From IMG/VR virus record IMGVR_UViG_3300037067_020597, positions 1 to 64,000 of that record: a DNA stretch of 64,000 nucleotides, one strand, 5' to 3'. Shown in pieces: positions 427-61,039 of this stretch (position 1 is the first letter of the stretch; each line of letters opens with the position of its first letter). The notes beneath the pieces were generated by a model. That model worked only from the letters and a program-made list of their open reading frames with translations. It did not search any database and was not told the origin of the DNA. Source of the DNA: a virus. Taxonomy: Duplodnaviria > Caudoviricetes. The position numbers and the translations under genes are program-made.

Positions 427-3204
427 TTGATGAATTGCCATGCATTAAATAACCGATCCAACATTACAGACGGTACTATCGTTATAGATAGTAATGGCAA
501 TCAATGGCAGTATGATTCCAAATTGAACACATGGACCTGTATAGGAACTTTTATCGCTGCACCGATTGTCACAGAAGATCAGAACGGTCTAATTTCTCCT
601 GAGATCTTCACACGTATCAACGCAATAACAGAAGCGGTCGACGATGGGTTGAAATTTGACTTTCTGAAAATTTATCCTAATCTATCCGGATATTATTATT
701 TATTTCAATCGTCAAATTACACAATTTCATTTGAGCCTGAATCAAGCCATGATTTGCGAATAGAGATTAATCGCCCTAGATTATTGGCGCTGCTATCACA
801 ATTAAAATGCCCTGGAGAACAAGGGTTAGAAGGAGAACAAGGCAATCAAGGTGCTAATGGAACTCCAGGAGAATCTGAAGCAAAATACGCTGCTACAATA
901 GAAGACAATGCTCTAGTAATTGACGCATCTGCTCAATCGACGATAGATACACCGATCTCACTGAGATTATTTAAAAACAACTCATCTAAAAGTTCATTAA
1001 CAATATTGCAGCCAATAGATGGTGAACCGTTTGCCATAGTTTATTCAGAAGTTGTTTTAGAAGACGGGTCGTTTTTGAACTATGATATTGCTACTGCTAC
1101 ATTATCTGGTAGACTAATATCAAACGATTGGTCGACAAATAATTGGTATTATAAGGCTAATGAAATTGGCCGAAAAGGTCCATCGGGTAATGAAGGTTCT
1201 GGTTTTTTTCAAATAATCAATAATAATCTTGTAGATGATACAGTCGAGGCCACGAAAGCAGTCATATCATTACGATATGATGGATTAAAATCAGATATTT
1301 ATTATTTTGATGACACTTTATTTGTTAATAATTGCGTATCCAAACTGGCTATTTTACATGCGTGTGCTACGACAGCCGTTGAGTCTCTTAAAACTGTTGA
1401 TGACTTATCTCTTGCAGCTGTAAGGCCAACTACCAGCACATGTAAAGATATAGTTCGATATCAGTTTGAGGAGAAACAGCACATAGCACCCGAATTGCAG
1501 TTTGTTGAATGGACACCGGTCAGTGCATGTTGGACCAAGAATCAATTTAGACAATTCAATTGGAAAGATTATACACCAGCATCAATTGTAGCGTGGAGAC
1601 AAGCAAATTCAGACACAAATGCTGATTCACGTTATCCATGGATGATAATTGAACCGCAATTTCCAGGGCAGCGGTGTTGTCAAGAGGATTTCTTTTTCTG
1701 TTCGAATGTGAATGATGTTAGTGGCGGCTGCCCTGTTTTAGTTGTTGAGCCGATTACACCATCAATCACTGAAATTTGTTGCCCATGTGATTGTCCAAGC
1801 TATTTAGATACGAGCCTTGAAATCGATATTCCTTACAATTCTGATACATCTAGTAATCCGACATGCCAAGGATTTGAATGCGTTATAAATGGAACTCTGC
1901 AGCACTATGATGTAACAGTTAATGTGCCATCCACTATTACAGGAGATGTCACAATTACTTTCAGCAGCCTATTTAATTATATATGTGAAGAGGCTAGATA
2001 TATCAGTAGTGCTTCTTGTCCTGATTATCCTAATACTGGTTCATGTCCTGTTTCTTGGTCTGCAGTTTGCACGAATGATAACTCACTTGGAGGGAAGCAA
2101 TATTCTACAATTGGATCGCCGATCGTATTTTCATATTCTGGCCCTAAAGGAGTAGCTTTAAAATTCGCGCTTGATATCAACCTTGAAGGGGCCGATTGTT
2201 GTCTTGGTTATTCAGTTCTTGCTTGTGCTTATGGCCCTACAACACGGCCTGGGGCTACGGGAGCAACAGGAGCTCCAGGAGCAACAGGAGCAACGGGTGC
2301 AACAGGAGCAACGGGTGCAACAGGTACACCGCCAATTCCAAATCCGCCGCTGCCGCCATCGCCATCACTACCGCCGCCGCCAATATGGCCGCCTCCGTTG
2401 CCGCCGCTGCCGCCGATAGTACCACCAGAAAAACCGCCCGGACCTCTTCCGTCCTATCCACCTGGTCCATATCCACCAGAAATATGCCCTGGTGATTGTA
2501 TGTGGTTTATGTCTCCTGGTGGCGGCGACTGGAGTTTAGTAAGAAACCAATGCACTCCTGGTTGTTACTGTCCACCGCCTGATTATTATACTGTTGTAAC
2601 ACCTTACGGTGGAGGCTGGGTTGCATATACAAGATGTCGGCCTGGAACACCATCACCGTCGCCATCGCCGTCTCAGGGGTATCCATCACCTGTGTATCCG
2701 TCTTCATCGCCGTCGCCTTCACCATCACCATCGCCTTCACCATCACTATCGCCTTCACAGATTTGTACATCTTCAGTTTCCGGTGTCATTGATACCGACT
2801 CTTATGGCTGGCAACCAGCAGCACATATCAGCGGCTCCAGTATAACTTGTACATTCAAGTACGAAGATTCGGAGAATTGTGGCGGTCCTAATGGGAACAT
2901 TCAGAGTGGAGAGTGCGTGTGTACTGTGACATTCGAGACATCTGCACATGTCTCCTATTCAATCAGCGGCGTATCAGAGAAATTTAATTCCGGATACGAC
3001 TATTTTACTATTTATCGTGATGGTGCAATGAAAGCACAGGTATCATCATCAAATGAATTGATTGAATGCGAGATGCTCAGCGTATCAGATGATGCTAATG
3101 AAGATTTGCCTCCCGGAACATATACATTTAGATTCGTGGCGGATACTGGAGACAATCGATACCATGTCAATATGACTCATACTGGAACAGTCTCATGGAG
3201 TTAA
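427..3204 (+). CDS. Cys-rich virion fibre/decoration protein with collagen, poly-Pro and Ser-Pro tracts
   Basis: 925 aa ORF with GEQGLEGEQGNQGANG and (GAT)n collagen repeats, a PPPP tract and SPSPSPSPSL; AGGTG SD upstream. Confidence 0.7.
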   Translation: MMNCHALNNRSNITDGTIVIDSNGNQWQYDSKLNTWTCIGTFIAAPIVTEDQNGLISPEIFTRINAITEAVDDGLKFDFLKIYPNLSGYYYLFQSSNYTISFEPESSHDLRIEINRPRLLALLSQLKCPGEQGLEGEQGNQGANGTPGESEAKYAATIEDNALVIDASAQSTIDTPISLRLFKNNSSKSSLTILQPIDGEPFAIVYSEVVLEDGSFLNYDIATATLSGRLISNDWSTNNWYYKANEIGRKGPSGNEGSGFFQIINNNLVDDTVEATKAVISLRYDGLKSDIYYFDDTLFVNNCVSKLAILHACATTAVESLKTVDDLSLAAVRPTTSTCKDIVRYQFEEKQHIAPELQFVEWTPVSACWTKNQFRQFNWKDYTPASIVAWRQANSDTNADSRYPWMIIEPQFPGQRCCQEDFFFCSNVNDVSGGCPVLVVEPITPSITEICCPCDCPSYLDTSLEIDIPYNSDTSSNPTCQGFECVINGTLQHYDVTVNVPSTITGDVTITFSSLFNYICEEARYISSASCPDYPNTGSCPVSWSAVCTNDNSLGGKQYSTIGSPIVFSYSGPKGVALKFALDINLEGADCCLGYSVLACAYGPTTRPGATGATGAPGATGATGATGATGATGTPPIPNPPLPPSPSLPPPPIWPPPLPPLPPIVPPEKPPGPLPSYPPGPYPPEICPGDCMWFMSPGGGDWSLVRNQCTPGCYCPPPDYYTVVTPYGGGWVAYTRCRPGTPSPSPSPSQGYPSPVYPSSSPSPSPSPSPSPSLSPSQICTSSVSGVIDTDSYGWQPAAHISGSSITCTFKYEDSENCGGPNGNIQSGECVCTVTFETSAHVSYSISGVSEKFNSGYDYFTIYRDGAMKAQVSSSNELIECEMLSVSDDANEDLPPGTYTFRFVADTGDNRYHVNMTHTGTVSWS
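2245..2760 (+). repeat. Coding low-complexity tract: (Gly-Ala-Thr)n, poly-Pro, (Ser-Pro)n
   Basis: Direct translation; the repeat units are codon multiples. Confidence 0.9.
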
Positions 3205-4095: not shown

Positions 4096-5610
4096 ATGAT
4101 TATTATGACAACAGTAACAGTCATTATGTCGGCATTGAATGAGGAATATATTGATAAGACGATAGAGACTATCATTGCGAACACCATGCCAGGTTTGATT
4201 GATGAGTTTATAATCGTCGATGATGGCAGTAAGATACCTGTCACTTCGGATAGGACGAATGTAAGAATTATACGTAATCAATTTCGAGAAGGATTGCAGA
4301 GATCTCGAAATACAGCTGCAGCAGCTGCCAAATCTCCAATTGTAGTATCAATCGATCCACACGTGAAGGTTTCACCCAATTGGCTACTGCCAATTGTTGA
4401 TCGATTGAAGAAGAATTACAACTGCATAGCTGTCCCACTTACAAGAGGGCTTGATGCGCCAACATGGTCAGAAACAACAGCCGCATATGCCAAGACTGGC
4501 TGGAGATGGAATCTCGACTTTAATTGGATACAAGATGATGGTACCGACGTGACTCCGGCGATGGCTGGTCATTGTTTTGCTTTTACGAAACAATGGTGGC
4601 AAGAAATTGGCGGTTTTGATACAGGCATGTACAAATGGGGCTGTGAAAATATCGAATTCTCTTTGCGAACTTGGTTGGCTGGCGGGACAGTAGAGATAAT
4701 TCGTGATTCAGTAGTTGCACATTGGTTTAAGAATACGTTCAATTATGAGTTTGACACAACCACATTAGAACAAAATAAGGCACGTATAGCAGAAGTGTGG
4801 TTCGGCGATTATAAACAGTTATTTTATCAATCAATTCGTAAGAAACCAGGCGACATCAAATTTGGCGATATTTCTGAACGAGAAGTCATACGCGATCGCA
4901 TTCAAAAAAGGCCGTTTCAATGGTTCCTCGATAATTTCTTGCCAGATTTGCAAGGCATCGAGATGCTGAAAAACAAGCATGCCAATAAAAGAGTAGCTGT
5001 TCTCGGTGCTGGGCCATCTTTAGATCATGTCACGAAAGGGATGTTAGCAGATTTTGATGTAGTAATAGGTGTTAATTACAATGCGATTGTGTTCGATTGC
5101 GACTATGTTGTTTTTCATGATTTGAAGCCAGCAGAAGCGGTCATGGATTCGAATAAATATCAGAACAGGCAGTTGCTTATTCCTAAAAAGCTTAAAATAG
5201 GTGCTGGCACATCATCAGTTGAACCACCTGCCAAATTTACTAACTGTACCACATATGAGCTTGGGCAACAGGATAAAAGCTCTTGTCTCAATAATAAAGA
5301 TCAACCGTTTTTCCATCACGCATCTACAGTCCATACTGCTATTCACATAGCCGCCTTTATCGGTGCAAAGACAATTACGCTGTTTGGGTGTGATGCTAGA
5401 TTGGCACCAGATGGTCGAAGTCACACTACATTAGTCCCACAATATAACCGTGGGAGATATTGGCCCAACAACAAAGATACTGAAAATTATATTGCTCGCA
5501 TCAATCGTGGGTACGACATGTTGCTTGGGCCATTGAAAAAGTGGAATATATCTCTACTGAGATATGAATATATGCCTAGTAGCGTGCCTGCTGCAGTATC
5601 TTCGAAGTAA
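4096..5610 (+). CDS. Polypeptide GalNAc-transferase-like (GT27-like) domain fused to a Maf/DUF115-like domain
   Basis: IVDD, REGLQRSR, DPH (DxH), WRWNLDFNW, TPAMAG, WGCENIEFSLRTWLAGG, AEVW, PFQWFLDN. The C-terminal half has VAVLGAGPS...GAKTITLFGCD. Confidence 0.85.
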   Translation: MIIMTTVTVIMSALNEEYIDKTIETIIANTMPGLIDEFIIVDDGSKIPVTSDRTNVRIIRNQFREGLQRSRNTAAAAAKSPIVVSIDPHVKVSPNWLLPIVDRLKKNYNCIAVPLTRGLDAPTWSETTAAYAKTGWRWNLDFNWIQDDGTDVTPAMAGHCFAFTKQWWQEIGGFDTGMYKWGCENIEFSLRTWLAGGTVEIIRDSVVAHWFKNTFNYEFDTTTLEQNKARIAEVWFGDYKQLFYQSIRKKPGDIKFGDISEREVIRDRIQKRPFQWFLDNFLPDLQGIEMLKNKHANKRVAVLGAGPSLDHVTKGMLADFDVVIGVNYNAIVFDCDYVVFHDLKPAEAVMDSNKYQNRQLLIPKKLKIGAGTSSVEPPAKFTNCTTYELGQQDKSSCLNNKDQPFFHHASTVHTAIHIAAFIGAKTITLFGCDARLAPDGRSHTTLVPQYNRGRYWPNNKDTENYIARINRGYDMLLGPLKKWNISLLRYEYMPSSVPAAVSSK

Positions 5611-5615
5611 TTATT

Positions 5616-5945
5616 ATGGACATTGTGGCACTTTTAATTGCATCAGTGGCCTTGATTGTTTCTTTGTTGGCATTGGTACTCGTAGTGTTAATCTACCGGG
5701 AACTTGTAAGGGATTCCTTTGCTAATCGCGACATGGAAAGATCGGCTTCGCAAGCTGCCCCCGGAGCAAATTCCAGAGGACAAGAATCTTCAACGAGAGT
5801 TGTTGATGCCTCCGAGCAGCCCGTTTCCTCTTCATTTTGCCATGCGCCAGATTTGGCCCCCGAAGTGCTCGCACCGTCACTCGGAAAACCCCCAATCCCC
5901 AAAGGTGGCTTTGGAACAAGAGTTGTTAAAAAACGTGGCGGATGA
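5616..5945 (+). CDS. Membrane-anchored hypothetical protein
   Basis: N-terminal hydrophobic helix followed by a low-complexity tail. Confidence 0.6.
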   Translation: MDIVALLIASVALIVSLLALVLVVLIYRELVRDSFANRDMERSASQAAPGANSRGQESSTRVVDASEQPVSSSFCHAPDLAPEVLAPSLGKPPIPKGGFGTRVVKKRGG

Positions 5946-6009
5946 AGAATTAGAGGAATCAATTTTTGTATTTGGATTAGGTGATGACTGCACAATCAGG
6001 AGAGTGGCA

Positions 6010-7080
6010 ATGAACGCAATAGGAATTGATATTGGAACTAAGAATATTGTTGTATCATTTCGCCACAACAAAAAGCTTGTGTTCCTGAAAGAAATCAACG
6101 GTTATTATCTTATACCAAGGCCCAGCAAGTTTGTAGAAAATATGCTGGATGACCCAAACAAGGTGCGTTCTGATGGGACGAAACGACCAGCAAAATGGAT
6201 ACGTCTAGAAGGACAAGATGGCATATATGTTTTGGGGAGAGATGCAGAAGAGCTGGCTTATGCTCATAACGATACACTATTACGGCCAATGGCCGAAGGA
6301 GGCGTTGCTGCAGATGAAGCCGCTTTAATGGTTCTTTCAAGTATAGTCCAGGGCTTGTTATCGATGTCCGAGCATGATGCTGGTGAATTCGAGCCCGAAG
6401 TAAAATTATGCTATTGCACGACAGCTAAGGCGCTTAATCGTGGCATTAATATTGACTACCATCAGCAAGTAGTCAATCTTATAATTTCTGGATATGAAAC
6501 TGAATCGACTATTACAACTACTTCGATCAAGGAGTCGCATGCTCTTGTTCTTAAAGAAACACCTGACGCTACCGGCATTGGAATTTCGTGGGGAGCCGGA
6601 ACTGTGACAGTTAGTTATGTTCTCTGGGGCAATGAAATTTATTCGTTTAGTTGGGTTGGTGCTGGGGATTGGATTGATACTGAGGTTGCCAAACGGCATG
6701 GTTATGATCCAGAATCGCCGCGTAAGAAATCATCTGAGACGCCTACAACTGTCTGCAGAGCAAAAGAAAAGATTGATTTAACGCAGAATTATACATCAAG
6801 ATTAGAATTGGATATTATACTGCATTATCGTATCCTAATTCAGAATGTTATCCGTGGTATTGTTCAAGGTTTCATCGATCATGAAACCAGTGCCCGTATT
6901 GATAAACCGATTGACGTGTTTATGGCCGGTGGTACAGCGTCTCCGCTTGGGTTTGAAGAAATGGTGGCTCAGTTATTCCAAGAGGAAAAACCGCCATTTG
7001 CAGTCAACAAAATAAAAAGATGCAAAGATCCATTATTTGCTGTCGCAGAGGGTTGTTTGATTGCGGCAGAATCTACGTAA
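6010..7080 (+). CDS. Actin-fold (MreB/ParM/FtsA-like) ATPase
   Basis: Phosphate-1 GIDIGTKN, phosphate-2-like GISWGAGT, adenosine motif MAGGTA. The start at 6010 has an AGGAG SD; the longer track start at 5719 overlaps the upstream gene. Confidence 0.8.
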   Translation: MNAIGIDIGTKNIVVSFRHNKKLVFLKEINGYYLIPRPSKFVENMLDDPNKVRSDGTKRPAKWIRLEGQDGIYVLGRDAEELAYAHNDTLLRPMAEGGVAADEAALMVLSSIVQGLLSMSEHDAGEFEPEVKLCYCTTAKALNRGINIDYHQQVVNLIISGYETESTITTTSIKESHALVLKETPDATGIGISWGAGTVTVSYVLWGNEIYSFSWVGAGDWIDTEVAKRHGYDPESPRKKSSETPTTVCRAKEKIDLTQNYTSRLELDIILHYRILIQNVIRGIVQGFIDHETSARIDKPIDVFMAGGTASPLGFEEMVAQLFQEEKPPFAVNKIKRCKDPLFAVAEGCLIAAEST

Positions 7081-7360: not shown

Positions 7361-8926
7361 ATGATCGTTGAAGAAAAAGAAATCGGACCTGATCAATATA
7401 GTGGACCTAGTGAATTTGTCCACCTTCATCTACACACATTAGCATCTACTCTAGATGGCGTTCCTTCAGCGGAACAATATGCTGATGCTTGTTTAAAGGC
7501 TGGCTTTCCAGCGATGGCTGCTACAGAGCATGGCCATATGGCCTCTTTTCCCGACATATATTTCGCATTCAAGAAGAGAAAATTGAAAGGAGTTGCTGGC
7601 GCGGAGATATATTATAATGACTATGAGCCATTGCGTAAAAAGGCGGAAGAGAAAGGTATCAAGCGTGATTCTTTGCCTGATAAATTGAAGCAGCGCATAA
7701 TGCGTAATCGTCATCTCACAGTTTTGGCGAAGAACTCTATTGGTGTTTCCAATCTTATCAAATTGACGACGCTTGCCTGGGAACATTCTTATATTGGGAA
7801 GCCACGTATATGGTTCGATCGGCTATGTGAGTTTAAAGAAGGTTTAATTGTTTTATCGGGATGCATAAATGGTCCAATATCATATGAACTTCGTTTGGAT
7901 ATTGATAGCAAAAACGACACCGGTAGGAGTTATTCGCGCAGCAAGGCCGATAAGACTGCATTAACATATTTAAAGGAATTTAAGGATGCATTTGGTGAAG
8001 ACTTTTTTATTGAAGTGCAGATGCCATGTCTTCCGGAGCTTCATGATACTGAGTTGTTCAGAACTTTAATTGAATATGCCGATGCTTACAGTGTGAAGCC
8101 TGTTCTCTCTAATGATGTTCACTATCTTACTAAGGATGACGCATATATCCAGCGCGTGATGATGGCTGTTGATCAGAAAACCAACGTCAATGATAAAAAT
8201 ATGTTTACTTCTCAGAGTGATGAACAATATTTTAAATCTCGTGCTCAATTGTGGGCTACATTCAAAAATCATGGTTATGCAGAAGGAGTCAGTGATGCAA
8301 AGTTTGAAGAAATATGTGATAACACATTATTGATAGCAGATCGGTGTGAAGTGCTATCGCCGGACATGTCGCCCAAGATTCCCGATTGGTCTGCTGTGGA
8401 AAAAGGTGTCAATGCAAATGCTCGATTGCGTGAGATTGTTTATGAGCAGCTTAAATTGCGAGGTTGGGATAAAGATACAAAGAAATGGCCGTGTGATGGT
8501 CGAATGGTGACTTACGCTGAGCAAGCAGAGATAGAGTTGGAAAGATTCATCGATAAGGGATTTTCTAGCTACTTCCTCATTACAAGAGATTGGATTCAAT
8601 GGGGAAGAGAAAAAGGTTGGCCTTTTGGGCCAAGAGGATGTACTATTCCAAACTCTTTGATATTAGTCGGTCCAGGTGTGCAGAAAAAGATAGAAGATCT
8701 CACAATAGGCGATGAAATAATAGATGGCTTTAGCAATAAACAAACTATCGAGAATAAGTTCATCTACGATATATCAGAGGAGTTATATGTATTTGAGCTT
8801 GACGATGGTGAGATTACTGTTACAGCAGATCATAAGTTTTATGTAATAAGAGATGGTGTGGTTGTGCTGCTACCAGCATCCGAAATCAAATCTACAGATG
8901 AGTTCATTGGTAATTTGCAGGACTAA
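7361..8926 (+). CDS. dnaE: DNA polymerase III alpha, N-terminal piece (PHP domain) ending in the N-half of a split intein
   Basis: FVHLHLHT, TEHG, HLTVLAKN, SGCING, NDVHY and ELERFIDKGFSSYFL...GPRG, followed by the intein start CTIPNS. Confidence 0.92.
   Translation: MIVEEKEIGPDQYSGPSEFVHLHLHTLASTLDGVPSAEQYADACLKAGFPAMAATEHGHMASFPDIYFAFKKRKLKGVAGAEIYYNDYEPLRKKAEEKGIKRDSLPDKLKQRIMRNRHLTVLAKNSIGVSNLIKLTTLAWEHSYIGKPRIWFDRLCEFKEGLIVLSGCINGPISYELRLDIDSKNDTGRSYSRSKADKTALTYLKEFKDAFGEDFFIEVQMPCLPELHDTELFRTLIEYADAYSVKPVLSNDVHYLTKDDAYIQRVMMAVDQKTNVNDKNMFTSQSDEQYFKSRAQLWATFKNHGYAEGVSDAKFEEICDNTLLIADRCEVLSPDMSPKIPDWSAVEKGVNANARLREIVYEQLKLRGWDKDTKKWPCDGRMVTYAEQAEIELERFIDKGFSSYFLITRDWIQWGREKGWPFGPRGCTIPNSLILVGPGVQKKIEDLTIGDEIIDGFSNKQTIENKFIYDISEELYVFELDDGEITVTADHKFYVIRDGVVVLLPASEIKSTDEFIGNLQD
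8639..8923 (+). mobile_element. Split intein N-fragment (95 aa)
   Basis: Block A Cys1 (CTIPNSLI), KIEDLTIGDEI, block B TVTADHKF, PASEIKSTDEF, then a stop codon. Confidence 0.88.
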
Positions 8927-8936
8927 AGAGCCATCC

Positions 8937-9947
8937 GTGAAGATATTCAAGGTAGAGTATTATTGTGAAAAATGTGGTGCGAAATGTTCTACTACCAATC
9001 ATAATCTACGATATAGAACGCATCATAAGGGCGAACATATATGTCAAAAATGTCTGATAAAACTTGAGAAGTCAAGGGGTCTTTTTGACGCCTTACCTAG
9101 TTGTTATCATTATCAGGTTTTTCTTGGTTGTGTAGAATACCAATTGGCAATACAATATTTGGTCGGGATATATTCGAAAATACTTATTAAATTTAACTGT
9201 CGACAATGTGGTTGCGAATGTATTATCAGATGGTCCAAAATGGCAGACAGAAAATATTATAAGTATGACAATGTATGTTCAAGCTGTCTAAATTATCTAA
9301 TACAAAATGATCCGGGTAAAATAGCCATAAATCAAGCAAATTCAAAGGCATTATGGTGTGATGCTAGTTATAGGCGCAAGTGTTTGAAAGCATTTGAGTT
9401 GCATAATAAGAATATGCAACTCAATACAGCATACGCGCATAAGCATCGCAGAAGGAGTAGATCGGTCGAGGGTTTTATCGAAATCAATGGGCAGTCGATA
9501 AGATTTGATAGCGCTTTTGAGTTGATATTTTTATGGCAAGTGAGGAATAAATACCAGAAGATCCGTAGATGCAATTTCGCTATTGCATATAGTAGTCATT
9601 TTTATCATCCTGATTTCTTGGTTATCGGGCCTGATGGATATAAGTCGATCATAGAGATAAAGGGATTCTATAAAAGTAACATATCTGAGAAACAAGAGGC
9701 AGCAGAAAAGTATATAGCTGAGACAGGAATCGCAGATTCTTATATTTTGTACGATACTGAATTGTTGTTATCTGAGGGTATTTTACGGGGCGTTGGTGGT
9801 GCTCACATGTGGAAACAGATCAGAGAGATCAATAATGAAACAACTGTTACCTTCACAAGTGAAGAACATAAGCGAATTGCAGAAATTGGTCGATCAAGGT
9901 TCCGTAGAGAGACTAAAAACAAAAAAGATATCAAAACGACAATATAG
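8937..9947 (+). mobile_element. Free-standing PD-(D/E)xK (TnsA-like) homing endonuclease with Zn-finger repeats
   Basis: CxxC repeats followed by FDSAFE...YHPDFLV...IIEIKG. GTG start at 8937, just after the IntN stop; sits between the two intein halves. Confidence 0.75.
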
Positions 9948-10599: not shown

Positions 10600-10601
10600 C
10601 A

Positions 10602-33344: not shown

Positions 33345-33872
33345 ATTTTAGTTCTAACAGCAGGGCTCCCAGCTGCGGGTAAATCGAAGGCTATAGATAT
33401 TCTAGCCAAGCATAAAGAATATACTTGGCATATTATCAGACCGTCAGACTGGGTTCCTGAAAATCTAGCTACATTGGATGAGAAAACACAACGAGAATTC
33501 AATATAGGTTGTTGGTCTGTTGCACTTGAGAAGTGTAAAGAAGCAATCGCTCAAGTACCACCTAACGAAATCATTGTATTAGATACGTGTAATTCAAAGT
33601 TTAATTCGCACGTATCGATGATAGCTGACGCAAAGAAAGCACTACATAAGGTAGTCTTGTTTTTCGTTCAAGCCAATGTTGATTTGTGTTTAGAAAGAAA
33701 CTCGCAGTTGTCCAAAACATTGTTATGTGATTATGTTGATAGATTCAAGTCGTCATTACCAAAATACAAGAAGTCTTGTGATCTTTTTGTGGTAGTACGA
33801 AACAATGGGATTTTGGAACAACTCGAAACAGAATTATATGATGTTTGGAAACGATTGTGCCAGAGTATCTAA
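33345..33872 (+). CDS. P-loop kinase (polynucleotide kinase/AAA_33-like), probable ATT start
   Basis: The frame upstream of the track start encodes LVLTAGLPAAGKS (Walker A); IVLDTCN and CLERN lie downstream. GAGGT SD 6 nt before the ATT. Confidence 0.7.
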   Translation: MLVLTAGLPAAGKSKAIDILAKHKEYTWHIIRPSDWVPENLATLDEKTQREFNIGCWSVALEKCKEAIAQVPPNEIIVLDTCNSKFNSHVSMIADAKKALHKVVLFFVQANVDLCLERNSQLSKTLLCDYVDRFKSSLPKYKKSCDLFVVVRNNGILEQLETELYDVWKRLCQSI

Positions 33873-35686
33873 ACCCACACCCACACGATTTGTACTTGGT
33901 TGGGCCAAATGGTGATACTATACATATTCGAAAAGGACGTAGAGTAAGACTGCCCGACTTTTTTGATCGCTATGTTAGTAAGGATAACGCTGGGACTAAA
34001 GGGTATTTAGTTAATGTCGACAAAATACCCGTAGCACCGCCTCCAAGACGAGAGATCAGGGCTGTGCGCCAGCTGGGGCGGCCAGTCAAGATAGTAAGAC
34101 AGCCAATAAAAGATGTAAAACATCAACGTCCCATCGTAGGGCGTATGCACAGAAATAATGATCCGGCACGATCAAAGAACTTTACAGGCCAAGTATATCC
34201 GATTAGCAACGGCGTTGGTGTTGGAATATTGACATATAATCGACCAGCATCGCTACGTCGGTTGATAGATTCTATTTCTCAGTATACGGATACGTGTCGC
34301 ACAACTATATTCGTGAGTGACGATGGCAGCACGAACCCAGATCAACTACAATACTTAGAAGAGCTTAAATTACGTGGCGACATAATAGTTGTACAGAATA
34401 AAAACCAATTAGGTGTCGCTGGTAATAGTAATCGTTTGATGAGGTGTCTTTCACGCTTTCCTAAGAAACTCCTATTGAACGACGATGTTGAAATATTGGC
34501 AGAAGGGTGGGAGCATTTTTATTTTTCGGTAATGCAACGAACCAATTTTCATCATTTTTGCTACCGGCAGCCTGGAGTATATGGCGCTGTCAAAGGAAAT
34601 AATGTAACAGTAAATGGCGTTGTTTTGAATGTCGTGGATAATAAACCGCACGGCGCTGTAATGGCATTTGATCATACTGCTTTTTCTAATATTGGATATT
34701 TTGATGAGCAGTTTGGGCAATATGGTGTTGAGCATGTAGATTGGTCTACCAGGCTGTCGGATAGCAAGCTACAACAACCTGGTTTTTTCGATGTCAATGG
34801 TTCTGACGCATATTTTATAGTCCATGCAGAACATTCGGCTGTGGAAAATAGAATTGAAAAGTTTAGAGCGGCTAAGGCAATATTGAATAAAGTTGGCGTC
34901 AGACCTGTTTATGTTGAGGCTAGTGATAAAACCATGGTGCCGCGCATATCATGTGTGATACCATTTCGGGAAATCGACAGAAAAAGCTCTATATTTACTG
35001 TTCTTAATAATATCAGAGCACAACGATTTCCAGATATTGAAATCGTGATGTCCGAGGAAGATGAACGATCTAAAATTAAGGATAATGAATGTGCTCCTGC
35101 AATGCACATTTTTACAGTGGGACAGCCAAGCGCAGCATTCAATAAGAGTAAAGCGTGGAATGTTGGCGTAAGCATATGTACATGTGACATGCTAGTCTTA
35201 CATGATGCAGATACTTTAGCACCTGGTGAATATTTTCAAGCAGTCGCTGACGAATTGACTACAGCAGAATCATGCCATCTTTGCAAGCAGATATTTTACA
35301 TAGGCGCAGCTGCGACAGAAGCAATTAACTCAACTGGTGTAATTAATCGGCCACCGTATGATCTATTAGTCGATTATTTTGAAGGTGGTACAATTGCATG
35401 TCGCCGAAAAGCATATTGGAGAATAGGCGGCTTCTCCGAAGAATTTGTGGGATATGGTGTAGAAGATAACGATTTTTATTTTAGATTGTCGAAGGCCACT
35501 ATTTGGCGTGAAAACAGACATTTCGATCTTTTACATCTATATCATATAAGAGTTAATAATTGGGCGGCATTTCATAAAAAGAACAAAGAATTAGGGCAGA
35601 AGCTCGATGCATTGTCGCTCAATGATAGAATAACTCGCCAGCGTCAATTGTTAATCAGAAGTGGGCGTGGTCATCATTTAGATTAG
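33845..35686 (+). CDS. Double GT-A (GT2 plus galactosyltransferase-like) glycosyltransferase
   Basis: GILTYNRP...VSDDGS...LLNDDVE; second domain CVIPFRE...LHDAD...GGFSEEFVGYGVEDNDF. Confidence 0.85.
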   Translation: METIVPEYLNPHPHDLYLVGPNGDTIHIRKGRRVRLPDFFDRYVSKDNAGTKGYLVNVDKIPVAPPPRREIRAVRQLGRPVKIVRQPIKDVKHQRPIVGRMHRNNDPARSKNFTGQVYPISNGVGVGILTYNRPASLRRLIDSISQYTDTCRTTIFVSDDGSTNPDQLQYLEELKLRGDIIVVQNKNQLGVAGNSNRLMRCLSRFPKKLLLNDDVEILAEGWEHFYFSVMQRTNFHHFCYRQPGVYGAVKGNNVTVNGVVLNVVDNKPHGAVMAFDHTAFSNIGYFDEQFGQYGVEHVDWSTRLSDSKLQQPGFFDVNGSDAYFIVHAEHSAVENRIEKFRAAKAILNKVGVRPVYVEASDKTMVPRISCVIPFREIDRKSSIFTVLNNIRAQRFPDIEIVMSEEDERSKIKDNECAPAMHIFTVGQPSAAFNKSKAWNVGVSICTCDMLVLHDADTLAPGEYFQAVADELTTAESCHLCKQIFYIGAAATEAINSTGVINRPPYDLLVDYFEGGTIACRRKAYWRIGGFSEEFVGYGVEDNDFYFRLSKATIWRENRHFDLLHLYHIRVNNWAAFHKKNKELGQKLDALSLNDRITRQRQLLIRSGRGHHLD

Positions 35687-35695
35687 GATAACAGC

Positions 35696-36655
35696 ATGCG
35701 TGTGTTATTTTGTAATAAACCCGGTGGTGCATGGGGTTTCGTTACTGAGAGTATGATAAACGCACTTCGTGATGTTGGCATAGAGACAGCAAGATGGGAT
35801 GGTAACTACAATACTTGGCAGTCTTTTGCTCCGGATGTTTATATTGGATCGAGCGGCCATAAGCAGCCGATACCGAGTGTGCGATCATGTAAGGTCGCAC
35901 TGCAAGTAAATCCGTTTGGCCCAATTAAAGTAGAGCCAAACATCAACGAATCAACTGATACGATTGAATGGGTTAAATCGGTGCGACCGAATGTTGTCTT
36001 CGGCTATGCACATGAAAGCGATCGTTTTTATTGGTCATATTGGGCAAACGTGGCCCAATGGATTCCGATGGCGACAGCTGGAGATGTCACGATATTTAAA
36101 CATACAAATGGAACACATAACCAATTCGATATAGGTTATGTCGGTGGCCGCTGGCCATATAAAGCCCAAGATATAGATGCCTATTTATTGCCGGTATTGC
36201 GCGATAAGTCTATATCGCACAGAGTATGCGGATGGGGCACATGGCCAGAAGGATTATGTTCCGGCAAAATCACAGATGAAGAAGTGCCAATATTGTTGGC
36301 AAGTTGTAAAATTGCACCGTGTATTAGTGAACCTCATACACTAGAACATGGAATCGATTTGCCTGAAAGGGTGTTTAAGGCGGCATTAAGCGGTGCAGTT
36401 GTAGTTCACGATCCTGCGAAGGGTCTAGAGAGATATCTTCCACACGCAATAATAGCAAGCAACCCTAAGTCATTCCATTTTGAGATTAGGAGCCTACTTG
36501 CTGATCAGAGCTTTTTGTCAAGCATAGCTGAAACACAGCGCCAAGATGTTTTACAAGCCCATACATATCATCATAGAATGGCTACGTTGATGACGTCACT
36601 GGGATTTGACGGGGAAGCAGAGTCGCTGTTATGTGCAGTAGAGAAATTTAAATGA
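35696..36655 (+). CDS. CgeB/YkvP-like GT-B glycosyltransferase
   Basis: DIGYVGG...RVCG.G.W...LPERVFKAALSGAVVV...HTYHHRM. Confidence 0.75.
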   Translation: MRVLFCNKPGGAWGFVTESMINALRDVGIETARWDGNYNTWQSFAPDVYIGSSGHKQPIPSVRSCKVALQVNPFGPIKVEPNINESTDTIEWVKSVRPNVVFGYAHESDRFYWSYWANVAQWIPMATAGDVTIFKHTNGTHNQFDIGYVGGRWPYKAQDIDAYLLPVLRDKSISHRVCGWGTWPEGLCSGKITDEEVPILLASCKIAPCISEPHTLEHGIDLPERVFKAALSGAVVVHDPAKGLERYLPHAIIASNPKSFHFEIRSLLADQSFLSSIAETQRQDVLQAHTYHHRMATLMTSLGFDGEAESLLCAVEKFK

Positions 36656-40919: not shown

Positions 40920-42947
40920 ATGCAAATTCAAGAACTCGACATCAATATTACATCAGCTACGGATCTCAATAATCTCGCTTTTGGTGACTTCAACAGATTG
41001 ACGAGCGATGCTGCCTACACAATCAGCGGAATAGCGTCTGGAGAAGGTAGCGGAGATGGCATACCAACTAATGCTATATTGTTTATCAATGTAGGGTCAT
41101 ATCGTATCGATTTCGCTAATGAGAGTGGAAATACCACAGCTGCGAATAGGATTATTACATTAACTGGCGGTGCAGTTAGCATTCCGCCGCGCGGGACGAT
41201 AGAGCTTGTTTATGATGTTACAAGTAGCAGATGGAGAGAAGTTAATTCTGTGACGGAACCATCGAGATCTCCATCGCCATCTTGGTTATCACCGTCATTT
41301 TCGCCATCACCTTCTTTGTCTACATTATTCTCACAATCGCCATCTTTATCGCCATTATTTTCGCAGTCGCCATCTACATCACCATTTCCTGGTATATTAT
41401 TAGGGAGGGGTTGCACCTTTTCTGCGGGATCTACTACGAACATTTTAGATGATAGATGCTCCGAATCTTCAATTATTATCTTATTAGAATTCGATAGTAA
41501 AATCGGGGAACCACATAACCAGTTAGTGTCTTATATTTCTAATAAAACTACATCGGGGTTTGTTATAAATCATGTAAATGCACAAGGTAATGAACTCGCA
41601 TCTTATATCATGATTAATGACACAAGCGGTGCCGTAAAAACAGGTAGCGGTACGCTGGAAAATGGAACATCTACTGTTATTTATGATGCCAATGTGAACG
41701 TGGATTCTAAGATATTTTTGCAAGCTACGAGTCCAGGTACATTTGAAAAATTCCCTGGGATTATCAATAAGTCTAATGGCTCTTTTGAAATAGCACACGG
41801 ATCTGCAAGTGGCATTGAGACATTCGATTATGCTATATTTAATATGGAGAGCGGTACGGACGGCATTTGTCTTGGAAGTGACACATTGACTATAGGAACT
41901 TCTACAACTGTGACTGATCCGTTATTACCCTGTGGTACTATGGTCTTTTTGCAGGCTACATGCGCGTTATTTAATATTTATTGGAAACTATACAACACCG
42001 GTATTGATAGCATCATTCTTTCTACTAGCGCTGCTGCAGGCACGGAAACTTTCGACTATATTTCATTTCCTAGAGATGTAATATGTTTTCCGTCACTATC
42101 TCCATCACTATCACCATCGTCATCACTATCACCATCGTTGCCATCGCCGTCATTATTGTCGCCATCTCCATTTCCTGATATTCTTTCTAGAGGTACGTGT
42201 GTGCTTAGCGCAGCTACTTCTACTACGGTTTATGACGAGAACGTGTCGCCAACTTCGATAATTATTACATTAAAATCAGATAATAATCAAGCAGCATATC
42301 TTTTATGTGTCAGTTCTAAGTCTAATGGTTCATTTGTGATTACGCATAATCAAGGACAAGGCAATGAATTAATCAATTATATTGTTTTGAACGGATCTAA
42401 CGAGATGATTGGGGCTAGCAGTGGCACGCTTAATGCTGGTACTAGTACAACTATTAACCATCCTCTTGTTAACCCATATACGAAAATATTTCTACAAGCA
42501 ACTGGATCGACCTGTAATACTTTTATGAGATGGCCAAGAGTTTTTAATCAGATGGGATCTTATTTTACAATTGGACATGAAAACGCTGCTGGCATAGAAA
42601 CGTTTGATTATGCCATCTTTCGTATAGATATTGATACATATGATGGTATCTATTTGGGCAGTGGCGAACTAAGCATACCTCCAGCTACTGATACAACTAT
42701 CATGAATGCTGGTGTTACAGCTAATTCAACAATTTTATTACAATCGACAAACGCTCAAATGTATGGCGGCAATCCAACTTATGCTTATTGGCGAATTAAA
42801 ACAAAATCTGAAGGCTCATTTGTTATTGCTTCAAATTTTGTGGATCATGCATCTTTTAGCTATGCTGTGATTAATGGTGGAGCACCTATTCCTTCGGCAT
42901 CGCCGTCACCCTCTCCGTCACCGTTATCATCACCATCACCGGAGTAG
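40920..42947 (+). CDS. Virion fibre/decoration protein with duplicated domains and three Ser-Pro linkers
   Basis: Repeated G.GTL..GTST.I...V...S.I.LQAT...GIETFDY units, separated by SPS tracts. Confidence 0.65.
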   Translation: MQIQELDINITSATDLNNLAFGDFNRLTSDAAYTISGIASGEGSGDGIPTNAILFINVGSYRIDFANESGNTTAANRIITLTGGAVSIPPRGTIELVYDVTSSRWREVNSVTEPSRSPSPSWLSPSFSPSPSLSTLFSQSPSLSPLFSQSPSTSPFPGILLGRGCTFSAGSTTNILDDRCSESSIIILLEFDSKIGEPHNQLVSYISNKTTSGFVINHVNAQGNELASYIMINDTSGAVKTGSGTLENGTSTVIYDANVNVDSKIFLQATSPGTFEKFPGIINKSNGSFEIAHGSASGIETFDYAIFNMESGTDGICLGSDTLTIGTSTTVTDPLLPCGTMVFLQATCALFNIYWKLYNTGIDSIILSTSAAAGTETFDYISFPRDVICFPSLSPSLSPSSSLSPSLPSPSLLSPSPFPDILSRGTCVLSAATSTTVYDENVSPTSIIITLKSDNNQAAYLLCVSSKSNGSFVITHNQGQGNELINYIVLNGSNEMIGASSGTLNAGTSTTINHPLVNPYTKIFLQATGSTCNTFMRWPRVFNQMGSYFTIGHENAAGIETFDYAIFRIDIDTYDGIYLGSGELSIPPATDTTIMNAGVTANSTILLQSTNAQMYGGNPTYAYWRIKTKSEGSFVIASNFVDHASFSYAVINGGAPIPSASPSPSPSPLSSPSPE

Positions 42948-49634: not shown

Positions 49635-49682
49635 GTATCTAAGATTGTATCGGCTATGGGTAAATATAGTGGAGGGCCGACT

Positions 49683-58117: not shown

Positions 58118-61039
58118 ATGGGATTGACAGCCACAAGTCAAATTACTCAGCAAACAACACCAGAAGCGGTTCAGGAATTTCCTATATCATTTGATAATAG
58201 ATATATGGTTACTGGGTTTGTAAACGCAAGCCTAATACCTGGTACGCCTTTCGTTAATATGTGGGGCAATGTTACTCTTGCTGGTTTGTTGTCAACTGAT
58301 AATAAAGGTGTCATTACTAGAGTTGATAGACAATATCAAAGCTTGAACCAAGATAATGTATCTCTTGCTTACGATGAAGAGACGATGAATTCGGTATTGG
58401 CACTGCTACGGATTTGTCGATGGCCCAACATTTCACATTATATAGCATTCTTAGACGATGCTAATACACTTTATCCTTGTGCAATAACATATCTAGAAAC
58501 AAATCAATGGGTTTCGCAACCTATAAACATCGATATCGACCACACAATTTTCACTACGCAATATGCAGTGTGGCATACTCATCAGCTAGAATATTTTGGT
58601 CTTGATTTGCCGCAGAACGGTGAAGTATGGAGTGGGGGACTGGTCCTTGGCTCATCCGATAGTATGATGAACTTGGGAGAGTATCGCACTTACGATGTGA
58701 TGTTTGGCAATCAAGATGTTTTTAGTCCTACATATATTGAGAAACTAACTGTTACTTTGCCGGTTCCAGGATACCAATATTTGCGTGCAGCGGGTTACAA
58801 GACTCCATTTATTCGAGCAGATCTGCCATATACGCTCGAATGGTTTAACGATTCTCCGGATGTCGCTGCAACAGAATTATATTGTCGTGACTTATGTTGT
58901 GCAGGATGTGACGGAGATTACTATGGCAGTTTTGCGCCATCGGGATCGATTAGAGTAGATGGACATCCTATTGGTACGCAGAGGTTATGGCTGATAAAGG
59001 GCATAAATGCTTTTGGCACAACTATTACACAAATGTGGTTTAGCGCTGTAGCAACATGCCCCAGGAGATTGACGTATTTCGGTGACTTTATAGAAGATTG
59101 TAAACTGCCACCATCTCCTATTCCGCCACCACCGACACCGACTCCGCTGCCACCGCCACCATCACCTTCATTCAGCCCGTCACCTTCGCCTTCGTTGTCA
59201 CTATCGTCATGGCAGTCTGCGTCTTTATCGCCATCACCATCACCATCTGTTTCGCCGTCGCCGTCTGTTTCGTCTTGGGCATCTCCTTCGGCATCGCCAT
59301 CATTGTTGTCGCCATCGACGAGTTTGTCGCCGTCTCCTAGCATCTCATCATCACCAGCAACTTCAGCATCGCTTTCACTCTCTCCGTCATTATCTGTATC
59401 GCAGTCGCCTTCAACTTCGATATCGCTATCTCCTACGCCTTCTATATCACTGTCGCCTTCGCCATCATTGTCATTGTCTGGATCACCCTCACCCTCACCT
59501 TCACCATCGGCTGATGTCAGCCATTATGATTGGTACTCAAGAGTGGCCGATGCTTTCGACGGTCGTTTTGTTATCACTTGGGTGCGTTACAGTCAATCAC
59601 CATCAGATAGAAAGCAGTATCAATATAACCCGATTGTCATGGCACAGGTATTTAATGCTGACAATACGCCAATGACGGGGCAGTTTATTGTGCCGTCATA
59701 TACCGATAAAACAAGTATTTGTCCAGATGTAGCGATGAATTGGGATGGATCATTTATTATTACCTGGTGTGGTCCAGATGTTGATTATGGTGTCGGTGTT
59801 CAAGCACGTAGGTTTGATTCGTCTGGTAATCCAATAGGAGATCAGTTTAGAGTAAATGCATTGGCTGACGCCAGTTACGAGACACCAGCTATTGCTATAA
59901 GGCAAGGTATATCAGATGGCAGTTTTATGATTGTGTGGGCCGAGTATTGGAACACTGGTCAACGTGAGATTTATGGTCAGAGGTTTAATTCTTCTGGTGC
60001 TAAAGTTGGTACAACTAACCTCAGAATAAGCACGACATCTGGATATTATAAAGAAAATCCAGATGTCGACATGGCTGATAATGGCAATATGTTTGTTGTA
60101 TGGGAAGGCGCGAAGGTTGACGTTCCTAACATATGGGGGCAGCGATTAAATAGTACTGGTGGTTTAGTTGGTGGTGAGTTTCAGGTCAACACTAGCTCGA
60201 CTACGATGCTCAGTGAAGACCTGAATCCAAGAGTTTCTGTTGCGGCGAATGGCTTAACCGTTGTGTCTTATCAGTTATTTGCTGCTGGAGATGCTCCTCA
60301 GTTTAATGTTTATGCACGCAGATACAACGCTTCCGGAGTTGCACAAGGCAACAACTTCAGAGTTAACCAATATACGGGTAGTGGTTGGCGTCGATGGTCG
60401 GAACCAGCCTGTGACCGTGATGGCAATTTTTCTATCTGCTGGCATTCACTAGGTCAAGACGATCCGATAACGACTGATTATGGCATTATGGGGCGATCTT
60501 ATAATGCCGCTGGTACTGCAGTGACGAATGAATATTGTATAAATAACTACCAATTAGAACATCGCGGCATTGATTACCAGATGTATCCTGCTATGACACG
60601 ACGATGTGGTAGTGGCCAATGGGTATGCTCTTGGAATGGATATCAAGGAATTGCACCATCAGGTGGCACCTTAGGCATATGGCATTCGCAAGTTAAAGAT
60701 GTTGGTGATATCAGAAGGCAACCGTTGCCAGGATTATGGTGGGCTATGAATGCACCACTTTCTGGAACTTATAATGTGGGTTCAAATATTACCATTTCTT
60801 GGACTGCTACTGGCGTTCAGCCTGGATACACTGTATGTCTGTGCTATGCATCGCAGCCTAACTTGTCTGGCGAGGAGCATTGGATTACAGTTGGTGAAAT
60901 CCAAGCTATTAACGAAATTGCAACTTGGACTTGGAACACCACTGGTGCTACTCCTGGTACATGGTATATCGGTGGCTATATTTGGAACGGTAGTGCTCCT
61001 ACCTATGCGTTTGCTACAACATCATTTATTTTGCAGTAG
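58118..61039 (+). CDS. Large virion protein with a long Ser-Pro linker and F[QR]VN beta-repeat domain
   Basis: SP tract of about 130 aa; repeated ARR[FY]...G..FRVN...P.VA units. Confidence 0.7.
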   Translation: MGLTATSQITQQTTPEAVQEFPISFDNRYMVTGFVNASLIPGTPFVNMWGNVTLAGLLSTDNKGVITRVDRQYQSLNQDNVSLAYDEETMNSVLALLRICRWPNISHYIAFLDDANTLYPCAITYLETNQWVSQPINIDIDHTIFTTQYAVWHTHQLEYFGLDLPQNGEVWSGGLVLGSSDSMMNLGEYRTYDVMFGNQDVFSPTYIEKLTVTLPVPGYQYLRAAGYKTPFIRADLPYTLEWFNDSPDVAATELYCRDLCCAGCDGDYYGSFAPSGSIRVDGHPIGTQRLWLIKGINAFGTTITQMWFSAVATCPRRLTYFGDFIEDCKLPPSPIPPPPTPTPLPPPPSPSFSPSPSPSLSLSSWQSASLSPSPSPSVSPSPSVSSWASPSASPSLLSPSTSLSPSPSISSSPATSASLSLSPSLSVSQSPSTSISLSPTPSISLSPSPSLSLSGSPSPSPSPSADVSHYDWYSRVADAFDGRFVITWVRYSQSPSDRKQYQYNPIVMAQVFNADNTPMTGQFIVPSYTDKTSICPDVAMNWDGSFIITWCGPDVDYGVGVQARRFDSSGNPIGDQFRVNALADASYETPAIAIRQGISDGSFMIVWAEYWNTGQREIYGQRFNSSGAKVGTTNLRISTTSGYYKENPDVDMADNGNMFVVWEGAKVDVPNIWGQRLNSTGGLVGGEFQVNTSSTTMLSEDLNPRVSVAANGLTVVSYQLFAAGDAPQFNVYARRYNASGVAQGNNFRVNQYTGSGWRRWSEPACDRDGNFSICWHSLGQDDPITTDYGIMGRSYNAAGTAVTNEYCINNYQLEHRGIDYQMYPAMTRRCGSGQWVCSWNGYQGIAPSGGTLGIWHSQVKDVGDIRRQPLPGLWWAMNAPLSGTYNVGSNITISWTATGVQPGYTVCLCYASQPNLSGEEHWITVGEIQAINEIATWTWNTTGATPGTWYIGGYIWNGSAPTYAFATTSFILQ
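59107..59510 (+). repeat. Coding Ser/Pro low-complexity tract
   Basis: Direct translation: PPPSPSFSPSPSPSLS... Confidence 0.9.

Follow-up and report, generated by a model that had tools for sequence, protein, structure and literature searches.

A GT27-type glycosyltransferase fused to a Maf/sialyltransferase-like domain in a jumbo phage, and its putative role in O-glycosylation of fibre-like proteins

Enzymes of glycosyltransferase family GT27, the polypeptide N-acetylgalactosaminyltransferases (ppGalNAc-Ts or GalNAc-Ts), are the hallmark of mucin-type O-glycosylation and are regarded as in essence confined to the Golgi of eukaryotes. What, then, would a gene with their signature do in a bacteriophage, and on which acceptor would its product act? 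The question is raised by a gene of IMGVR_UViG_3300037067_020597, a 74,962-bp IMG/VR virus record, of which we analysed positions 1-64,000 (hereafter the window). The product, P0001, is a 504-amino-acid (aa) two-domain glycosyltransferase (Table 1). An initial annotation had taken positions 4096-4950 for a GT27 catalytic domain with which the phage would start O-glycan chains on proteins of its virion. No paper on GT27-type or GalNAc-T enzymes in phages was found in a literature search. The evidence below makes us consider it somewhat better than an even bet, at about 55%, that the gene and its neighbours form a soluble, cytoplasmic, two-step protein O-glycosylation cassette acting on fibre proteins of the phage.

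The enzyme gene and its product

All motifs claimed for positions 4096-4950 were present in residues 1-285 of an open 504-aa frame: IIVDD (39-43), REGLQRSR (64-71), IDPH (86-89), WLLP (96-99), WRWNLDFNW (136-144), TPAMAG (153-158), FD.GM..WGCENIEFSLRTW..GG (174-197), V.H.F (207-211), N..R.AEVW...YK (227-240), G.IS.R...R (257-266) and PF.W.L.N..P.L (273-285). By motif comparison, this eleven-fold agreement with ppGalNAc-Ts is far above chance. The interval first proposed does cover the N-terminal domain, but the gene extends to position 5610 and encodes a second domain of catalytic type. An AlphaFold2 model of the whole protein, built with 36 homologues in the alignment, reached a predicted local distance difference test score (pLDDT) of 92.7 and a predicted template modelling score of 0.87. 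The protein begins directly with the Rossmann strand β1 (residues 7-13), with no signal peptide and no hydrophobic anchor; the type II membrane anchor of GT27 enzymes was found neither in the translation nor in the model. Lacking an N-terminal anchor, P0001 must by prediction work in the cytoplasm.

Table 1 Features of the window, by position, strand and the basis on which each was assigned
Feature	Position	Strand	Basis
3' end of paralogous fibre-like gene, cut by contig end	1..417	+	Match to L008 open reading frame
P0003, 925-aa fibre-like protein, proposed acceptor	427..3204	+	Translation, tract scan, synteny
P0002, free-standing 214-aa paralogue of the C-terminal domain of P0001	3450..4094	+	hhalign 95%, weak PF01973
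P0001, whole enzyme gene, 504-aa two-domain glycosyltransferase	4096..5610	+	Open reading frame, translation, model
N-terminal GT27-like (ppGalNAc-T-type) GT-A catalytic domain of P0001, aa 1-287	4096..4956	+	
C-terminal Maf/MptE/sialyltransferase-like domain of P0001, aa 288-495	4957..5580	+	
Second glycosyltransferase island	33845..36655	+	Pfam PF00535, PF10111, PF02709, PF13524
613-aa double GT2-type protein, second domain with 7C motif	33845-35686	+	Pfam
GT1-like protein	35696-36655	+	Pfam
675-aa protein with K1-lyase C-terminal-like (tailspike-type) domain	40920..42947	+	PF24146, E 2.7e-8
973-aa protein, last of tail module	58118..61039	+	Tract scan

A catalytic domain of the GT27 type

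A phmmer search against all PDB sequences matched residues ~7-286 of P0001 to 16 distinct GT27 sequences (GalNAc-T1, T2, T4, T7, T9, T10 and T12 and Toxoplasma T3) with E values from 1e-45 to 1e-29, the next family being GT2 at 1e-4. Pfam placed PF00535 and PF02709 on the domain, the same pair as in animal GalNAc-Ts, whereas PF11397, the Pfam family of GT60, gave no match to P0001 at E 0.1 or better. When the model was run through Foldseek, ranks 1-49 were all GT27 enzymes with human GalNAc-T2 first, and the overlay called for by the initial annotation gave an E value of 1.4e-27 and a root-mean-square deviation (rmsd) of 2.0 Å over 306 columns against 6e7i and 4d0z.

Residues were mapped through a HMMER alignment to GalNAc-T2 in full-length numbering. 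The residues of GalNAc-T2 that bind uridine diphosphate (UDP) and the sugar, D176, R201 and R208, correspond to D43, R64 and R71 of P0001, and D224 and H226 of the DxH motif to D87 and H89. The C-terminal His aligned to the Mn2+ site (H359) is H209; W331, E334 and N335 of the WGxENxE motif are W181, E184 and N185, P0001 reading WGCENIE at 181-187; the flexible-loop Tyr (Y367) is Y217; and the peptide-groove aromatics F280, W282 and F361 are F142, W144 and F211. All mapped residues were 100% conserved in 30 homologues of the main phage clade, down to 46% identity, and the catalytic machinery and peptide groove of the domain are thus GT27-like. The DxH motif, which had been taken as a mark of GT27, is indeed present (IDPH), although GT60 enzymes carry it as well (PMC7185993).

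On these grounds the N-terminal domain is very probably an active GT27-type enzyme, and we find it likely, with less assurance, that its acceptor is a polypeptide. Many phage glycosyltransferases glycosylate modified bases of phage DNA, according to the work cited in PMC12619734, and a Mom-like DNA-modification domain is encoded at 49656-51257 of the window. That P0001 would do the same is very improbable: it has kept the peptide groove of GT27, Pfam and PHROG gave no match to any known family of DNA glycosyltransferases, and a search of five records, including two that are 99-100% complete, found no hydroxymethylase of the thymidylate synthase family; it is the lack of this hydroxymethylase in complete relatives that makes DNA glycosylation unlikely.

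Phylogenetic position and distribution

A search of 1.84 billion representatives with the N-terminal domain gave 7018 matches. The best named matches from outside phages were GalNAc-T-like proteins of protists (Chromera, Vitrella, Porospora, Alphamonas, Lapot and Dermamoeba) at 38-44% identity, with animal enzymes next. A maximum-likelihood tree of 75 domains, obtained by a careful search, covered the phage enzymes, eukaryotic GT27 and, as a narrow outgroup, bacterial GT2/7C proteins. In this tree the phage clades and the eukaryotic GT27 enzymes were split from the bacterial GT2/7C proteins with a support of 94/96; the domain does not cluster inside bacterial GT2, the placement that would have spoken against the initial annotation. 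Sequence, fold, active-site conservation and phylogeny thus agree on a phage-encoded GT27-type catalytic domain as distinct from an ordinary bacterial GT2 enzyme.

On the GT27 side of the split a divergent phage clade branched first, followed by the main phage clade and after it by two eukaryotic clades, the monophyly of eukaryotes being supported by 72/65. A phage clade cleanly outside monophyletic eukaryotes had come from FastTree and a quick IQ-TREE run; in a constraint test, grouping the phage clade with the eukaryotic clade rich in protists gave a tree that was not rejected and scored better. In view of this test and the support of 72/65, the claim on the inner branching order was withdrawn. 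As judged from the tree, the phage enzymes belong with GT27, form deep clades of their own and are no recent capture from animals.

About 50 homologues with both domains (30-84% identity) were found among 5.8 billion proteins, none of them from a cultured organism. They are encoded on metagenomic contigs of up to 370 kb, and the relatives in IMG/VR include contigs of up to 388 kb that are 99-100% complete. Some homologues carry the name 'polypeptide N-acetylgalactosaminyltransferase' in the automatic annotation of JGI. When two conserved motifs were searched for in 185,579 prokaryotic species genomes, a scan limited to what these patterns can catch, a single weak match turned up in Chloroflexia (26% identity). 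Stand-alone GT27-like proteins of 284-306 aa without the Maf-like domain, 47-52% identical to the N-terminal domain, also occur (L016 6001-6855, P0043-P0046 and P0087); the contig of one such gene also carries a UDP-galactopyranose mutase-like gene and a further gene of the GT2/7C type.

The C-terminal domain and its upstream paralogue

The initial annotation had pointed out that the ricin-B lectin domain is missing. Indeed no match to PF00652 was found in P0001, but its place is taken by a Maf/sialyltransferase-like domain that had been overlooked. This domain carries the motifs GAGPSLD (304-310), HD (341-342), HHAST (407-411), GCD (431-433) and SHT (442-444). It was modelled separately (pLDDT 85.7) and compared with ~48,000 PDB representatives by VIA-align. 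The best fold match was the flagellin glycosyltransferase Maf (5mu5; Z 12.4, 173 residues, rmsd 3.8 Å); the GT29 sialyltransferases ST8SiaIII, ST3Gal-I and ST6GalNAc2 scored Z 9.0-9.6 and the GT42 enzyme Cst-I Z 9.1. The top 15 matches consisted of Maf, MptE, sialyltransferases, SteA and pyrophosphokinases, after which Z fell to 4.9.

A profile of the domain matched Cst-II weakly (E 0.18) over most of the domain length, with GAGPSL paired with GNGPSL, HHAST with the start of the R-I-T-S helix and GCD with GID; the catalytic-base His of Cst-II was paired with no His of the phage domain in the hidden Markov model alignment. The catalytic residues of Maf (E324/D415 of 5mu5) correspond to HD 341-342 and GCD 431-433, approximately, as they were placed by alignment ranges. 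Only residues 262-495 of the 632-residue Maf were matched, and its flanking N- and C-terminal domains were not found. Judging by the model, the domain is folded like Maf and the sialyltransferases without being a canonical Maf.

Directly upstream lies the gene of P0002, which matched the profile of the C-terminal domain with an hhalign probability of 95%; two of its stretches also matched the A2 profile. P0002 also gave a weak match to a PHROG family named 'alpha-2,3-sialyltransferase', and its orthologues, ~50% identical, occupy the same position in two distant relatives (L009 and L010). With the lectin domain replaced by a Maf-like domain and a paralogous gene lying upstream, the lone initiating enzyme of the initial annotation becomes a putative multi-step cassette.

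We hold the chances about even that the C-terminal domain is a transferase that uses cytidine monophosphate (CMP)-activated sugars, as several results argue against it. MptE pyrophosphokinase (archaeal HPPK, 8sd5) fits the model nearly as well as Maf does (Z 11.8 versus 12.4) and is ranked first by Foldseek, which otherwise returned the same set; thiamin pyrophosphokinases follow at Z ~8, the fold being common to pyrophosphokinases. PF01973 scored 31.6 bits on P0001 and 24.3 bits on P0002, under the cut-off of 34.6, while the precomputed Pfam annotation lists this family for most homologues of P0001. The domain and P0002 could accordingly be kinases of the MptE/thiamin pyrophosphokinase type, acting on a small molecule or sugar, or non-catalytic modules, leaving the GT27 domain as the only one to transfer sugar. 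We consider this unlikely: the domain is fused to a glycosyltransferase, its motif pattern aligns with that of Cst-II, a CMP-3-deoxy-D-manno-octulosonate (Kdo) synthetase of the KdsB type is encoded in relatives, and a protein language-model atlas places the domain among widespread viral MptE-like proteins of ~220 aa, one PHROG family of which is annotated as sialyltransferase.

A divergent subfamily (P0047-P0053, e.g. L012 7262-8722) is ~33% identical to P0001. It has lost DxH, the C-terminal His, R64, R71 and W181 and has kept all motifs of the C-terminal domain. That these motifs outlive a decayed N-terminal active site speaks for a Maf-like domain with a function of its own; the N-terminal domain of this subfamily may have turned into a non-catalytic substrate-binding module.

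Gene order and candidate acceptors

The gene neighbourhood was compared across 13 loci with DNA available (the window, L002-L012 and L017), a set that takes in relatives at 56, 52 and 33% identity and the P0091 lineage, whose enzyme has no Maf-like domain. In all 13, the enzyme is preceded by large proteins, one or two in number, that are paralogous and 560-1040 aa long, and the order fibre-like protein with a Ser/Thr/Pro tract, MptE-like protein, GT27-like enzyme is kept throughout (13/13). Two further relatives, for which only gene calls were at hand, also have a large protein (559 or 834 aa) preceding the enzyme. The upstream proteins have in common a short collagen-like Gxx run at residues ~125-150 and, in their C-terminal half, a tract made almost purely of Ser, Thr and Pro. 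The composition of the tract is kept and its sequence is hypervariable (SPSPSPS, poly-Thr, PTTTP and GPTTTS repeats), and, as sequence features go, a conserved composition with a free sequence is the signature of mucin domains.

The representative in the window, P0003, belongs to a family that the homologue search found confined to this phage group. Its collagen-like Gxx stretches lie at aa 130-150 and 609-635, and it further contains a region rich in Pro and, at aa 739-786 (nucleotides 2641-2784), a mucin-like Ser/Pro tract; we infer a location in the virion. The frame cut by the contig end just before it is identical in 116 of 138 residues to the C-terminus of the 725-aa open reading frame (ORF) that precedes the P0003 orthologue in L008. 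Among the 49 ORFs of the window of at least 150 aa, Ser/Thr/Pro tracts occur in three: P0003 and two proteins encoded at 40920-42947 and 58118-61039. The former, with three Ser/Pro-rich tracts (aa 110-138, 389-420 and 653-675), is a candidate acceptor, as a tail spike or fibre-like protein, and the latter, with a 130-residue Ser/Pro/Thr-rich region (aa 336-468), is a further candidate. The strict synteny with proteins bearing mucin-like tracts lends comparative support to O-glycosylation of the phage's own virion proteins, as put forward by the initial annotation, which on the gene content is plausible, and we lean slightly towards the phage's own fibre-like proteins as the acceptors.

The genes that follow the enzyme vary among relatives and comprise GT1-like and GT2 glycosyltransferases, methyltransferases, NUDIX, pyruvyl transferase, WecB, a radical-SAM enzyme and epimerases, as would be expected of a glycan-diversifying island anchored on the initiating enzyme. 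KdsB-type CMP-Kdo synthetases were found in three relatives, at G001:C1:101885-102520 (L015 9874-10617), L010 1128-1904 (-) and L011 2044-2799 (-); set against the NCBIfam subfamily cut-off of 193 bits, two score higher (259 and 213) and one slightly lower (183).

Gene contents of this kind also invite a different interpretation, in which P0001 and the other phage glycosyltransferases remodel the host envelope, altering lipopolysaccharide, capsule, exopolysaccharide or a lipid-linked precursor and, for instance, blocking superinfection. Glycosyltransferase clusters of jumbo phages are usually read in this way (PMC7824862), KdsB, WecB, pyruvyl transferase and methyltransferases are typical of polysaccharide loci, and Pfam sees only generic GT2/7C domains in the enzyme. 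Yet the nearest relatives of P0001, by 25-40 orders of magnitude, are the protein-specific GT27 enzymes, and the aromatics F142, W144 and F211 of its peptide groove are invariant. The enzyme has no membrane segments, no flippase or polymerase genes were seen in the examined loci, and strict adjacency to proteins with Ser/Thr/Pro tracts would be left unexplained; we therefore regard envelope remodelling as unlikely.

A protein target of the host, such as flagellin, pilin, adhesins or cytoplasmic proteins, O-glycosylated as a device for takeover or exclusion, would agree with Maf, the best structural match of the C-terminal domain, being a flagellin glycosyltransferase, and with a cytoplasmic enzyme that has host proteins at hand. 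Against it stand the size of the phage domain (~215 aa without the flanking Maf domains, versus 632 aa of 5mu5) and the conserved genomic partner, which is a phage protein with mucin-like tracts. To this explanation we give a low probability, a little under that of envelope remodelling.

The proposed pathway

In the cassette acting on fibre proteins, the N-terminal domain would bind a UDP-sugar through Mn2+, held by D87-x-H89 and H209 as in ppGalNAc-Ts, and would move the sugar with retention, in α linkage, onto Ser/Thr of Pro-rich, mucin-like tracts. ppGalNAc-Ts prefer Ser/Thr flanked by Pro. The first sugar would probably be an N-acetylhexosamine (HexNAc), though not necessarily GalNAc. In a second step, following the first or running alongside it, the fused Maf/sialyltransferase-like domain and P0002 would draw on an ulosonic acid activated with CMP. 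This would most likely be Kdo, supplied by the pool of a Gram-negative host and boosted in some relatives by a phage KdsB, or else a sialic-acid-like sugar. The residue transferred would cap the first sugar or be attached directly to Ser/Thr, in the manner of Maf on flagellin. Cytoplasmic O-glycosylation of Ser/Thr is known from Maf enzymes, which accept both CMP-Kdo and CMP-N-acetylneuraminic acid (CMP-Neu5Ac), so that the second step would be chemically reasonable (bioRxiv 10.1101/2020.06.03.131540). The acceptors would be the large collagen-motif fibre-like proteins encoded upstream, together with tail-module proteins that have SPSPS or poly-Thr tracts, and glycosylation in the host cytoplasm ahead of virion assembly would give the particle a mucin-like glycan coat.

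Several observations weigh against this proposal, besides the likeness of the C-terminal domain to pyrophosphokinases. Three positions that line the N-acetyl pocket for GalNAc in GalNAc-T2 are changed in P0001 (I253 to T116, G309 to H159 and L310 to C160) and are as invariant among the 30 homologues as the catalytic residues; in PDB entry 6e7i, Ala has been substituted at two positions, and these are I253 and L310. With this pocket altered, the donor cannot be assumed to be GalNAc. In P0003, no virion domain was recognisable beyond the short collagen repeats in Pfam, PHROG, PDB sequences, the ESM Atlas or among homologues, and its gene sits in the replication region, outside the tail module. 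Ser/Thr/Pro linkers are common and do not require glycosylation. KdsB is absent from a relative that is 100% complete, and NeuB, the synthase of sialic, legionaminic and pseudaminic acids, was not found in five related records. A phage-encoded nonulosonic-acid pathway was dropped on the latter ground, and CMP-Kdo derived from the host or from KdsB is favoured instead.

Comparison with known systems

Compared with eukaryotic GT27 enzymes (GalNAc-T2, 2FFU and 4D0T; fly PGANT9; Toxoplasma GalNAc-T3), the N-terminal domain is ~30% identical to those of animals and 38-44% to those of alveolates, superposes at an rmsd of ~2 Å, and shares the Mn2+ site of DxH and C-terminal His, the WGxENxE motif, the flexible-loop Tyr and the peptide-groove aromatics. 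P0001 differs in having neither type II anchor and stem nor ricin-B domain, with a Maf/MptE-like domain instead, in T116, H159 and C160 of the N-acetyl pocket, in its own deep clade, and in that it must act in the bacterial cytoplasm, whereas the eukaryotic enzymes act in the Golgi. By computation, P0001 agreed with GT27 in every catalytic-domain test applied and departed from it in the lectin domain and the membrane anchor. A ricin-B lectin domain is typical of GT27, but CAZy defines its families on the catalytic domain, this one included.

Gnt1 of Dictyostelium, a member of GT60, is a cytoplasmic enzyme without a lectin domain, as P0001 would be, and has DxH in common with it. Unlike GT60 enzymes, the phage enzyme is not matched by PF11397, and all its strong matches are to GT27. 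GT60 (Dictyostelium Gnt1 and Trypanosoma OGNT) comprises retaining enzymes with DxH that O-glycosylate Ser/Thr or hydroxyproline, and is sister to GT27 in phylogenies of GT-A enzymes (PMC7185993).

With Maf (PF01973/DUF115, 5MU5) and the GT42 and GT29 enzymes (Cst-II and ST6GalNAc2), the C-terminal domain and P0002 share a modified GT-A/MptE-like fold, and the phage domain the GxGPS, S/T and GxD motifs. In contrast to Maf, it comprises the core domain only (~215 aa), and the sequence similarity is marginal.

The closest parallel in phages comes from the mycobacteriophages Che8, Corndog and Myrna (Freeman et al. 2023, as cited in PMC12619734), whose glycosyltransferases are thought to O-glycosylate the phages' own structural proteins in the cytoplasm. 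The system described here would be similar in this respect. It belongs to another phage lineage and host type; the mycobacteriophage enzymes are, going by that citing account, not known as GT27- or Maf-like, and their acceptors are given there as the C-termini of capsid and tail-tube subunits, while the acceptors proposed here are mucin-like tracts in the interior of fibre-like proteins.

Genomic context

CheckV estimated the 74,962-bp record to be 21% complete, which puts the whole genome at roughly 350 kb. The window has genes for a tail sheath (46742), tail tube (51965), T4-type baseplate protein (53162) and tail protein (55336), as well as RecA, a DnaB-like helicase, a gp32-like protein and a split DnaE. 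From this set of tail sheath, tube, baseplate and replication genes, the source is identified as a contractile-tailed (myovirus-type) jumbo phage. No match was found among INPHARED phage records, either by tblastn with the enzyme protein or by megablast with 25 kb of the window. The 'Moraphage' lineage of jumbo phages, with its four core glycosyltransferases (PMC12619734), was considered, and no link to this contig could be made.

Directly downstream of the enzyme gene, a 453-aa ORF (5719-7080, +) matches the Pfam family 'Volactin' (PF25216, E 2.8e-42), an archaeal actin homologue, and looks like a phage-encoded actin-like protein. A Volactin-type gene is kept 3' of the glycosyltransferase in distant relatives (L010 11774-13048, L011 11915-12991 and L012 8839-10494).

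DNA polymerase III alpha is encoded in two genes, one with the PHP domain and the start of the NTPase domain and the other with the remaining NTPase, finger and HHH domains (split region 7361-8926, 8853-9947, 10153-11090 and 11091-13895). Between the halves lie a TnsA/DUF790-like endonuclease-type ORF and two small ORFs. The gap holds different cargo in relatives (epimerases, NUDIX), pointing to an ancestral split and an insertion hotspot. Downstream, tandem collagen-like proteins with GAT/GPx repeats are encoded at 14006-15625 and 15635-17185 (+). Their repeat length is very variable among related phages, and in L003 (18542-20965) and L007 (18273-21479) the Gxx region grows to >750 residues. 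A protein of the uracil-DNA glycosylase superfamily (19013-19729, +; PF03167, E 5.7e-28) keeps its position after the DnaE region in relatives.

The second glycosyltransferase island possibly encodes chain-extending enzymes and is a candidate for that role. The 533-aa ORF with the Mom-family domain (PF25680, E 2.5e-18, at its C-terminus; + strand) lies between the sheath and tube genes and has weak zinc-ribbon and restriction-endonuclease-like matches at its N-terminus; it is possibly a DNA-modification enzyme in an unusual position.

Implications

Overall, the phages of this group harbour a sizeable, deep-branching clade of enzymes with an intact GT27 active site, free of anchor and lectin domain and fused to a Maf/sialyltransferase-like domain, and the evolutionary origin of GT27 becomes a testable question. 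By the proposed pathway, virion glycosylation in phages would have a second case besides that of the mycobacteriophages, one with a different mechanism and with the genes for the enzyme and for its mucin-like substrate next to each other. It would also offer a naturally soluble, bacterially expressed ppGalNAc-T-like enzyme, possibly with built-in capping, for making mucin-type glycopeptides in Escherichia coli. A bolder proposition, to which we give a rather low probability, is that these jumbo phages assemble genuine mucin-type glycans inside the cytoplasm of the bacterium, with an α-HexNAc on Ser/Thr of virion fibres capped by Kdo or a sialic-acid-like sugar ('sialyl-Tn-like'), and that their enzymes form an ancient lineage, either the sister group of all eukaryotic GT27 or ancestral to them. 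Were the phage lineage that ancient, the enzyme that initiates mucin-type glycosylation would have a connection to prokaryotic viruses and would not be a eukaryotic invention.

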